Below are positions 15,118-15,427 of a DNA stretch of 26,245 nucleotides, one piece after another. The stretch lies in the IMG/VR virus record IMGVR_UViG_2879731240_000002; one strand, given 5' to 3'. The translations under genes and the position numbers were made by a program. The DNA is from a virus. Lineage: Duplodnaviria > Heunggongvirae > Uroviricota > Caudoviricetes. The notes under the pieces were generated by a model. The model was not told the DNA's origin and did not search any database. It saw only the letters and a list, made by a program, of their open reading frames with translations. Positions within the stretch are counted from its first letter, which is position 1. Every line of letters starts with the position of its first letter.

Positions 15118-15192
15118 TGGAGCGGGCAGCGGGAATCGAACCCGCATCATCAGCTTGGAAGGCTGAGGTAATAGCCATTATACGATGCCCGC
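15118..15192 (-). tRNA. tRNA-Gly (anticodon UCC)
   Basis: 75-nt cloverleaf ending CCA; anticodon loop CUUCCAA; sequence matches E. coli glyT-type tRNA. Part of a phage-borne cluster between Q and S. Confidence 0.85.
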
Positions 15193-15195
15193 ATA

Positions 15196-15271
15196 TGGTG
15201 CCGACTACCGGAATCGAACTGGTGACCTACTGATTACAAGTCAGTTGCTCTACCTACTGAGCCAAGTCGGC
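15196..15271 (-). tRNA. tRNA-Thr (anticodon UGU)
   Basis: 76 nt; anticodon arm ACTGA-CTTGTAA-TCAGT; T-arm GGTTCGATTCC; ends CCA. Confidence 0.8.
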
Positions 15272-15273
15272 AC

Positions 15274-15351
15274 TGGACCGCCACCGGGGACTCGAACCTC
15301 GCACACTCAACTTAAAGGGTTGACGCTCTTTCCTGATGAGCTAGTGGCGGT
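15274..15351 (-). tRNA. Atypical tRNA-like gene (best fold gives anticodon UUU/Lys with C at position 33); possible pseudo-tRNA
   Basis: Acceptor stem CCGCCAC/GTGGCGG plus CCA, D-arm GCTC/GAGC, T-loop TTCGAGT, anticodon stem TCAAC/GTTGA with loop CCTTTAA. One T-stem mismatch, C33 and a 5' C are non-canonical. Confidence 0.45.
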
Positions 15352-15427
15352 TGGTGGCCCTTGCTGGATTTGAACCAGCGACCTGGCGATTATGAGTCGC
15401 TCGCTCTCACCACTGAGCTAAAGGGCC
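15352..15427 (-). tRNA. tRNA with anticodon CAU, Ile2 (lysidine)-type, i.e. phage ileZ-like (could formally be Met)
   Basis: Close to E. coli ileX/ileY-type sequence (GGCCC.TTAGCTCAGTGG...GACTCATAATCGC...GGTTCAA.TCCAG); ends CCA. Confidence 0.75.

Follow-up and report, generated by a model that had tools for sequence, protein, structure and literature searches.

A four-gene phage tRNA cassette with a UUU-anticodon member of arginine-tRNA descent

The tRNA cluster

The window analyzed here is the whole 26,245-nt stretch of a caudoviricete virus (IMG/VR record IMGVR_UViG_2879731240_000002), and the subject is a cluster of tRNA genes within it, one of which is atypical. The tRNA genes were called with ARAGORN and with the Rfam covariance model RF00005 (cmscan; gathering score 29 bits). 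Both placed four tRNA genes, arranged head to tail, on the minus strand (15118-15427). The original prediction, made from the letters alone, had placed a four-gene cluster at these same coordinates.

In the order of transcription (ARAGORN coordinates), the genes carried the anticodons CAU (15427..15352), UUU (15350..15274), UGU (15271..15196) and UCC (15192..15118), separated by spacers of 1, 2 and 3 nt. Their RF00005 scores were 72.5, 44.4, 72.5 and 64.9 bits, respectively. The weakest member, the UUU gene (designated gene 2), had an E-value of 1.4e-6 across the whole window, and therefore no member of the cluster is a chance match. The four-gene tRNA cassette is real.

The CAU gene was identical, base for base, to ileZ of the Shiga toxin (Stx) 2a phage Stx2a_WGPS6 (AP012539), and the same sequence is labelled tRNA-Ile by PGAP. 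It was assigned to the Ile2 type for these two reasons. The UGU gene reproduces the host tRNA-Thr gene thrU except for a private A9G change at 15263, and the UCC gene is a copy of the host tRNA-Gly gene glyT. The three members proposed as canonical (Gly-UCC, Thr-UGU and a CAU gene of the Ile2 type) were thus confirmed. ARAGORN labelled gene 2 tRNA-Lys(ttt).

On the plus strand, Rfam also listed matches to 'Plastid-ycf2 5UTR' at 15120-15427, opposite three of the tRNA genes. At 28-36 bits they were well under the family threshold of 65.7 bits, and they were dismissed as an antisense-tRNA artefact.

Fold and anomalies of gene 2

In the cmscan alignment, gene 2 showed an acceptor stem CCGCCAC/GUGGCGG with C1-G72, followed by the discriminator U73 and an encoded CCA. 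The D-arm was GCUC/GAGC with G18G19 present. The anticodon stem UCAAC/GUUGA closed the loop C32 C33 U34 U35 U36 A37 A38 (CCUUUAA). In the T-arm (CGAGG-UUCGAGU-CCCCG), A51xC63 was the sole non-standard pair. The cloverleaf, the CCUUUAA loop with C33, the T-stem mismatch and the 5' C of the original prediction were all present.

Gene 2 therefore had the cloverleaf hallmarks, namely stems of 7/4/5/5 bp, U8, A14, G18G19, T54-Psi55-C56 and the encoded CCA. It lacked U33, and C33 was kept in every allele seen of this C33-UUU form (designated type A). Of the features of lysT-type genes, it had the UUU anticodon and U36A37A38, but U73 in place of A73, and C33. A T-stem mismatch comparable to A51xC63 was found in host thrU (A52xC62).

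Minimum free energy folding was not discriminating, as the genuine Ile2 and Thr genes also failed to give cloverleaves. The cloverleaf lay above the molecule's own minimum by 2.7 kcal/mol for gene 2 and by 6.4 kcal/mol for argN of the Stx phages.

Origin of gene 2 from a phage arginine tRNA

Alignment of gene 2 with Escherichia coli lysT, the sequence of which was verified, gave 51.9% identity (37 differences). In contrast, identity to phage tRNA-Arg(UCU) genes was 85.7-90.9%, with the gene of locus L114 at the upper end (90.9%, 7 differences) and that of L008 at the lower (85.7%). Identity to argN (anticodon UCG) of Stx2a_WGPS6 was 84.4% (12 differences). The original prediction had suggested a decaying tRNA-Lys. 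These alignments contradict it, and an origin from host lysT was rejected on its low identity. Its other suggestion, a variant with altered decoding, may yet apply.

The seven differences from the Arg(UCU) gene of L114 were at positions 20a, 26, 33 (C in gene 2, U in the relative), 35 (U and C, respectively), 44, 63 and 73. In the anticodon loop, U33C and C35U account for the change from CUUCUAA to CCUUUAA.

C1-G72 was common to the whole argN/Arg(UCU) family, and U73 and A51xC63 were common to argN and gene 2. The family scores with RF00005 were 43.0 bits for argN and 55-58 bits for the Arg(UCU) relatives. We interpreted C1-G72, U73 and A51xC63 as inherited and not as signs of fresh decay, because they occur in argN or the whole family and because the mismatch in thrU is comparable. 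On the alignments, only C33 and U35 are new to gene 2.

Compensatory stem differences were present within the family, namely G30-C40 in argN against A30-U40 in gene 2, and G3-C70 in gene 2 against A3-U70 in L008. Such compensation is older than the loop change, and is therefore uninformative on selection after it.

Whatever the cluster type, the slot of gene 2 came immediately after ileZ on its 3' side, between the antitermination gene Q and the lysis genes. With a UUU anticodon and without C35, gene 2 is a derivative of the Arg family and not a functional isoacceptor member of it. Judged by sequence, its origin is settled: it is a phage tRNA of the argN/Arg(UCU) family with a remoulded anticodon loop.

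No intermediate with the same stem (U33 with UUU, or C33 with UCU) was found in IMG/VR; the search matched three unrelated contigs, none with a tRNA at the site. When the species representatives of GTDB were scanned for the exact T-arm pattern, it was confined to a single E. coli genome and a single Shigella flexneri genome. A further T-arm match, in a metagenome-assembled genome of Burkholderiales, was set aside as chance, there being no tRNA gene at that place.

A second derivative of the family without U33 was also observed. Three loci (L016, L019 and L119) carried a solitary member whose loop reads CAUAUAA, with A33 and the anticodon UAU, on a weak anticodon stem. It was labelled tRNA-Ile(tat) by ARAGORN, and the one locus tested, L016, gave no Rfam tRNA match at the gathering score.

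Assembly of the cassette

A scan of IMG/VR with the T-arm of the family gave 120 loci, which were sorted by cluster type. The order of the window (Ile2, type A, Thr, Gly) was found at 65 loci, plus about ten truncated or variant ones. At 19 loci, slot 2 of the same four-gene cluster was filled by an Arg(UCU) gene with U33. Six loci had Ile2, a type-A gene with a one-base deletion in the D-stem, and Arg(UCU), and three had ileZ, argN and argO. In six loci, the UUU anticodon was on the Thr gene itself.

The Arg(UCU) form of the cluster was also present in two GTDB representatives, one of S. flexneri and one of E. coli, each of which had two additional copies of it. The genomes concerned, ECMA0423 (E. 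coli) and SFBU1023 (S. flexneri), each carried three clusters (L129-L134), two with Arg(UCU) and one with C33-UUU. In these genomes, sister prophages therefore continue to provide AGA decoding.

The Thr gene of the cassette matched host thrU at 75/76 positions, and the Gly gene matched glyT at 75/75. The Thr sequence was matched in 5421 of 5426 complete E. coli genomes. The likeness to the host was confined to segments of mature tRNA length (15118-15271 in the window; L135), and the spacers, the flanks and tyrU of host thrU-tyrU-glyT-thrT were all absent. This suggests, from the limits of the similarity, gene conversion or capture of processed tRNAs rather than transfer of a genomic fragment.

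Taken by its sequence relationships, the cassette is a derivative of ileZ-argN-argO, in which ileZ was kept, the argN slot was remoulded and argO was replaced by the thrU and glyT copies. The original prediction had set its composition apart from the ileZ-argN-argO set of 933W-type phages. This is literally true of the gene content, yet the cassette derives directly from that set. An ancestral form, Ile2(AUA)-Arg(UCU, AGA)-Thr(ACA)-Gly(GGA), supplements the full set of rare codons ending in A and persists in Shigella and enteroinvasive E. coli. A literature search on ileZ/argN/argO and on lambdoid Lys-Thr-Gly clusters found nothing specific.

Several variants of the Thr and Gly genes were seen. 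Position 9 of the Thr gene (15263 in the window) is G, against A in host thrU and in the majority of phage copies; G9 occurred in only 4 IMG/VR haplotypes. U16C and U20C in the D-loop of Thr(UGU) were found in L008 and 18 similar loci with Arg(UCU), and also in L078 and L091. These are among the least-constrained tRNA positions, and the changes may be neutral.

In the loci with UUU on the Thr body (L004, 1673-1748; L047, 3480-3555; L105), a thrU-type gene had G35U and A26G, which gave a canonical CUUUUAA loop. PGAP calls this gene tRNA-Lys and it scored 74.2 bits with Rfam. It was present in 6 of the 5426 E. coli genomes, which were like enterotoxigenic E. coli. It stood only beside a degraded U8C gene 2 or beside Arg(UCU), and never beside an intact type-A allele.

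In several IMG/VR haplotypes the phage Gly copy had the compensatory change C6-G66 to U6-A66. This double change is evidence of structural selection on the Gly gene. The pair-breaking variants G3A and U11C also occurred in phage Gly copies.

Distribution and variation of gene 2 in E. coli

Gene 2 was found by megablast in 798 of the 5426 complete E. coli genomes (about 15%), at a median of one place in each. The Arg(UCU) form tested was found in 16 genomes. Genes of the lysT type were present in all 5426, with a median of 6 copies per genome.

Annotation was examined in 60 evenly spaced hits among the E. coli matches of gene 2. PGAP had annotated 26 of them (43%) as tRNA-Lys, and all of these were the exact allele of the window or one mismatch away from it. 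The other 34 (57%) had no tRNA annotation and were degraded alleles. These were mainly delta-T12 with C70U (in prophages of Shiga toxin-producing and enteropathogenic E. coli) and C4U/U8C/C11U, and included more diverged ones. The degraded alleles tested fell under the Rfam gathering score, while the adjoining Ile2, Thr and Gly genes still scored 62-74 bits.

The original prediction had named a different fold, or a known pseudo-tRNA in relatives, as outcomes that would tell against it. The fold was as proposed and the exact allele bears the PGAP label tRNA-Lys, but in most relatives the segment was degraded and unannotated, so that this concern was borne out by half.

Nucleotide diversity (pi) was computed over 23 haplotypes with flanks homologous to the window. 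The values were 0.0011 for Ile2, 0.0056 for Gly, 0.0093 for Thr and 0.0117 for gene 2, and 0.009-0.031 for the non-coding flanks. Gene 2 was within the range of the flanks, and would therefore evolve at about the neutral rate. The frequencies of the alleles and the pi values both suggest that constraint on gene 2 is relaxed, polymorphism being only partly informative in this respect.

Genomic setting

Upstream of the cluster, on the same strand, was the gene of phage antitermination protein Q (15626..16315, minus; Pfam PF06323, E = 3.7e-91), as were RusA and DUF968 genes. Downstream was a P21-type holin S gene (14610..14825, minus; PF04971, E = 1.4e-35). Transposase genes lay directly beyond the holin, where the remaining lysis genes would be expected.

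Between Q and the tRNA genes, a G+C-rich hairpin with a T-run after it (15531..15558; CCCGC...GCGGG TTTTTT on the minus strand, although the scan listed the hairpin on the plus strand) is a candidate tR'-like terminator. A sigma-70-like match, TTGCAA-17-TATTAT (15437..15465, minus), lay 10 nt upstream of the first tRNA gene; it is a consensus match only. A second such consensus match (15637..15609, minus) is a candidate pR'. With these putative promoter and terminator roles, the layout would be the usual order of Q, pR', tR', tRNAs and lysis genes.

The surroundings were those of a Shigella-type ipaH island. They included a CssrB small RNA (1004-1183), an IpaH NEL E3-ligase gene (1311-2954), hok/sok (18328-18503), an integrase gene by tRNA-Ser(CGA) (19568-20735) and a group II intron and its reverse transcriptase (23801-25414). 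A tRNA-Asn gene was also in the window. The same arrangement, from the cluster to tRNA-Ser and tRNA-Asn, was found in E. coli ECMA0423, a GTDB species representative (L130), and a type-A cluster was also found in the S. flexneri representative. From the surrounding genes and the arrangement in ECMA0423, we placed the cluster in a decayed prophage remnant of the lambdoid type, integrated at serU in the ipaH island of a Shigella-like chromosome.

An open reading frame at 7943-8278 (minus), just upstream of the tape-measure gene, was read as a tail chaperone by its position. It contains a T TTT TTT run at about 8015, in the register that a P2-type -1 frameshift would use. The idea that Gly(UCC) and a modified Lys(UUU) tune a lambda-type G GGA AAG frameshift was rejected for the window, as the chaperone frame has the T-run and no GGGAAAG.

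Gene 2 as a relic of an AGA-reading tRNA

We favour, at an even chance, the reading that gene 2 is a little-used, disabled or near-neutral relic of an AGA-reading tRNA, which automated annotation labels tRNA-Lys. On this reading, an Arg(UCU) gene gained U33C and C35U and so acquired the CCUUUAA loop. The RNA would still be transcribed and cut out together with its neighbours. The identity of tRNA-Lys for lysyl-tRNA synthetase (LysRS) lies mainly in U34-U36, with A73 as a minor element, and the UUU anticodon would probably permit weak charging by this enzyme. Codon binding by tRNA-Lys(UUU) is unusually dependent on the modifications of the anticodon loop. The change to C33 would remove the uridine of the U-turn and block the formation of N6-threonylcarbamoyladenosine at position 37 (t6A37) by E. 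coli TsaBCDE. Lacking both, the RNA of gene 2 would decode poorly, and the gene would be carried along by its useful neighbours.

The two effects ascribed to C33 have a basis in published work. U33 is conserved in bacterial tRNAs, where it enforces the U-turn required for ribosome binding (PMC13276492). A U33C tRNA was not modified by E. coli TsaBCDE in vitro, and C33 was termed an anti-determinant (PMC8887486).

Codon use in the open reading frames of the region, a set that included some insertion sequence transposases, was (per 1000) ATA 7.6, AGA 7.3, ACA 17.0, GGA 13.7 and AAA 39.5. Against what we take to be the E. coli averages, ATA, AGA, ACA and GGA would be enriched about two- to threefold and AAA would be near the host level. 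With about six host genes of the lysT type and AAA near the host level, a seventh and abnormal UUU tRNA would have no obvious value for codon supply.

Several observations weigh against a relic. The exact 77-nt allele was present in 279 genomes, which made it the commonest single allele, and it was also present in the isolated and sequenced phages vB_EcoM-606R7 and vB_EcoS-689R5 (in the annotation of vB_EcoM-606R7 it was left without a tRNA call). The distinct mutational events numbered about 18 in gene 2 and about 17 in the Thr copy, so that there was no excess in gene 2, and the stem changes in gene 2 were mostly C to U, which preserve G.U pairs. Its Rfam score was no worse than that of the named gene argN. 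Finally, two loop changes, one of which makes a sense anticodon for a synthetase that reads mainly the anticodon, are also the pattern of an adaptive remoulding.

Alternative readings

Such a remoulding is the core of the main alternative. Here gene 2 would be a functional tRNA-Lys, insensitive to nucleases and made in one step from the phage tRNA-Arg(UCU), and would keep up the translation of AAA and AAG when host tRNA-Lys is cleaved. C35U would hand the molecule to LysRS, the Arg-type stem would lack the site for AriB of the PARIS system, C33 would remove the U33 context of PrrC as well as t6A37 and its cyclic form ct6A37, and the Thr(UGU) copy would top up the other main target of AriB. Cleavage of tRNA-Lys by AriB is abolished by U39A and impaired by A41C and U16C, and the AriB-resistant tRNA-Lys of phage T5 has U36AAACC41 and C16 (PMC12409363; PMC11464382). 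PrrC cuts tRNA-Lys 3' of U33 (PMC2610378) and is stated to require ct6A37 (PMC12409363). Gene 2 reads U36AAGUU41 with C16; it has G39, U40, U41 and C16 against U39, C40, A41 and U16 in host tRNA-Lys, and by sequence it is therefore not expected to be an AriB substrate. However, G39, U40, U41 and C16 came with the Arg body and did not arise as new adaptations. C33 alters the context of the PrrC cut, and a block of t6A formation should prevent the ct6A37 mark, but a tRNA-Lys(UUU) lacking U33 and t6A37 is also expected to decode poorly, and U73 stands in place of the A73 of lysT. The cluster does pair a UUU gene with a UGU gene, the two main AriB targets, and U16C occurs in some phage Thr copies; yet the AriB site is retained in the Thr copy. 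The type-A gene was far commoner in E. coli than the tested Arg(UCU) form (798 genomes against 16), and a second, independent switch to UUU took place on the Thr body by G35U. That allele is rare, however (6 genomes), the intermediates sought in IMG/VR did not turn up, about 57% of the E. coli copies of gene 2 were degraded, and its diversity was at the level of the non-coding flanks. We regard this alternative as unlikely. A shade less likely still is its full form, in which two loop changes turned Arg(UCU) into a t6A37-less acceptor of lysine that neither AriB (no UAAUCA site; C16) nor PrrC (no U33 or ct6A37) could cut, and which together with the Thr(UGU) copy would make up a prophage counter-measure in about 15% of E. 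coli strains.

The remaining readings were given less weight than these. Gene 2 might be a non-decoding RNA element. It could be a tRNA-shaped signal for the processing of the polycistronic late transcript (RNase P/RNase E punctuation), or else act as a decoy by binding and titrating a modification enzyme or a nuclease that targets tRNAs. The cloverleaf, T-loop and CCA were kept despite the abnormal decoding loop, the 1-3 nt spacing would fit coupled processing, and the PARIS authors considered that overexpressed viral tRNAs might inhibit AriB by competition (PMC12409363), which fits a decoy. But the shape-damaging delta-T12 and U8C alleles are common, which a role that depends on shape should not tolerate, and where gene 2 is degraded its neighbours do without any additional punctuation; we consider such an element improbable. 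An ordinary, competent tRNA-Lys for codon supply, whether a decaying lysT copy or a normal phage tRNA-Lys, would agree with the labels of ARAGORN and PGAP. It is contradicted by the closeness to phage Arg(UCU) instead of lysT. C33, U73 and the T-stem mismatch also speak against it, as do the facts that AAA is not rare, that the host has about six lysT-type genes and that most copies of gene 2 are degraded. This left it with very little credence. Least credible of all was a tRNA that keeps its arginine identity and inserts arginine at AAA and AAG as a recoding or missense tRNA. Gene 2 retains A20 and the Arg-type body, but C35, a major determinant for arginyl-tRNA synthetase, is lost, and LysRS reads mainly U34-U36. 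A proteome-wide replacement of lysine by arginine would also be harmful, yet the allele is widespread.

Significance

Phage tRNA cassettes between Q and the lysis genes are textbook knowledge, and the tRNA-Lys label of PGAP is already in hundreds of genomes, so that the feature itself is ordinary. In the literature searched, a phage tRNA of the Arg family that was switched to UUU together with the loss of U33 appears to be undescribed, as does the presence of this switch in about 15% of complete E. coli genomes. An RNA predicted from its sequence to be without the features by which the two best-studied tRNA-Lys nucleases recognize their target also appears to be undescribed there.

If gene 2 works, the use of viral tRNAs as anti-defence tools would extend from large lytic phages (T5) to common temperate phages, and bacteria would have a natural elongator tRNA with C33. 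If it does not work, automated annotation mislabels a degenerate tRNA-Arg relic as tRNA-Lys. The question is directly testable with the published PARIS and PrrC assays.

Comparison with known systems

The nearest known system is ileZ-argN-argO of the Stx-converting lambdoid phages (933W type; Stx2a_WGPS6), which is likewise placed after Q and before the lysis genes and has an identical ileZ. Gene 2 and argN occupy the same slot and have C1-G72, U73, A51xC63, the D-arm and the T-arm in common. They differ in the loop (CCUUUAA in gene 2, CUUCGAA in argN), and the anticodon stem of gene 2 is that of the UCU-type relatives. At the place of argO, the window has the thrU and glyT types.

The Ile2-Arg(UCU)-Thr-Gly clusters of Shigella and enteroinvasive E. 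coli prophages (L008, L129, L131) have the same architecture and spacing as the window and an identical Gly gene. Their Thr gene differs from that of the window at three bases (G9A, U16C and U20C). Their Arg(UCU) gene has U33, C35, a paired A51-U63 and A73 or G73, scores 55-58 bits and is called tRNA-Arg by PGAP.

In the host operon thrU-tyrU-glyT-thrT, only the Thr (75/76) and Gly (75/75) sequences are shared with the cassette. The two phage genes are 3 nt apart, and tyrU and the host spacers and flanks are absent.

The tRNA-Lys(UUU) of T5 and gene 2 are both phage-encoded, both have UUU, and both are substituted at the AriB determinants 39-41 and have C16. The T5 molecule, however, is a bona fide tRNA-Lys with U33, the resistance and rescue of which were shown by experiment, whereas gene 2 is derived from an Arg gene, has C33 and U73, is often degraded, and is insensitive by prediction.

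The main natural and functional C33 tRNA is the initiator tRNA-Met of multicellular eukaryotes, and towards the t6A machinery of bacteria and of yeast C33 acts as an anti-determinant (PMC8887486). That initiator acts in the P site of eukaryotic ribosomes and is not a bacterial or phage elongator.

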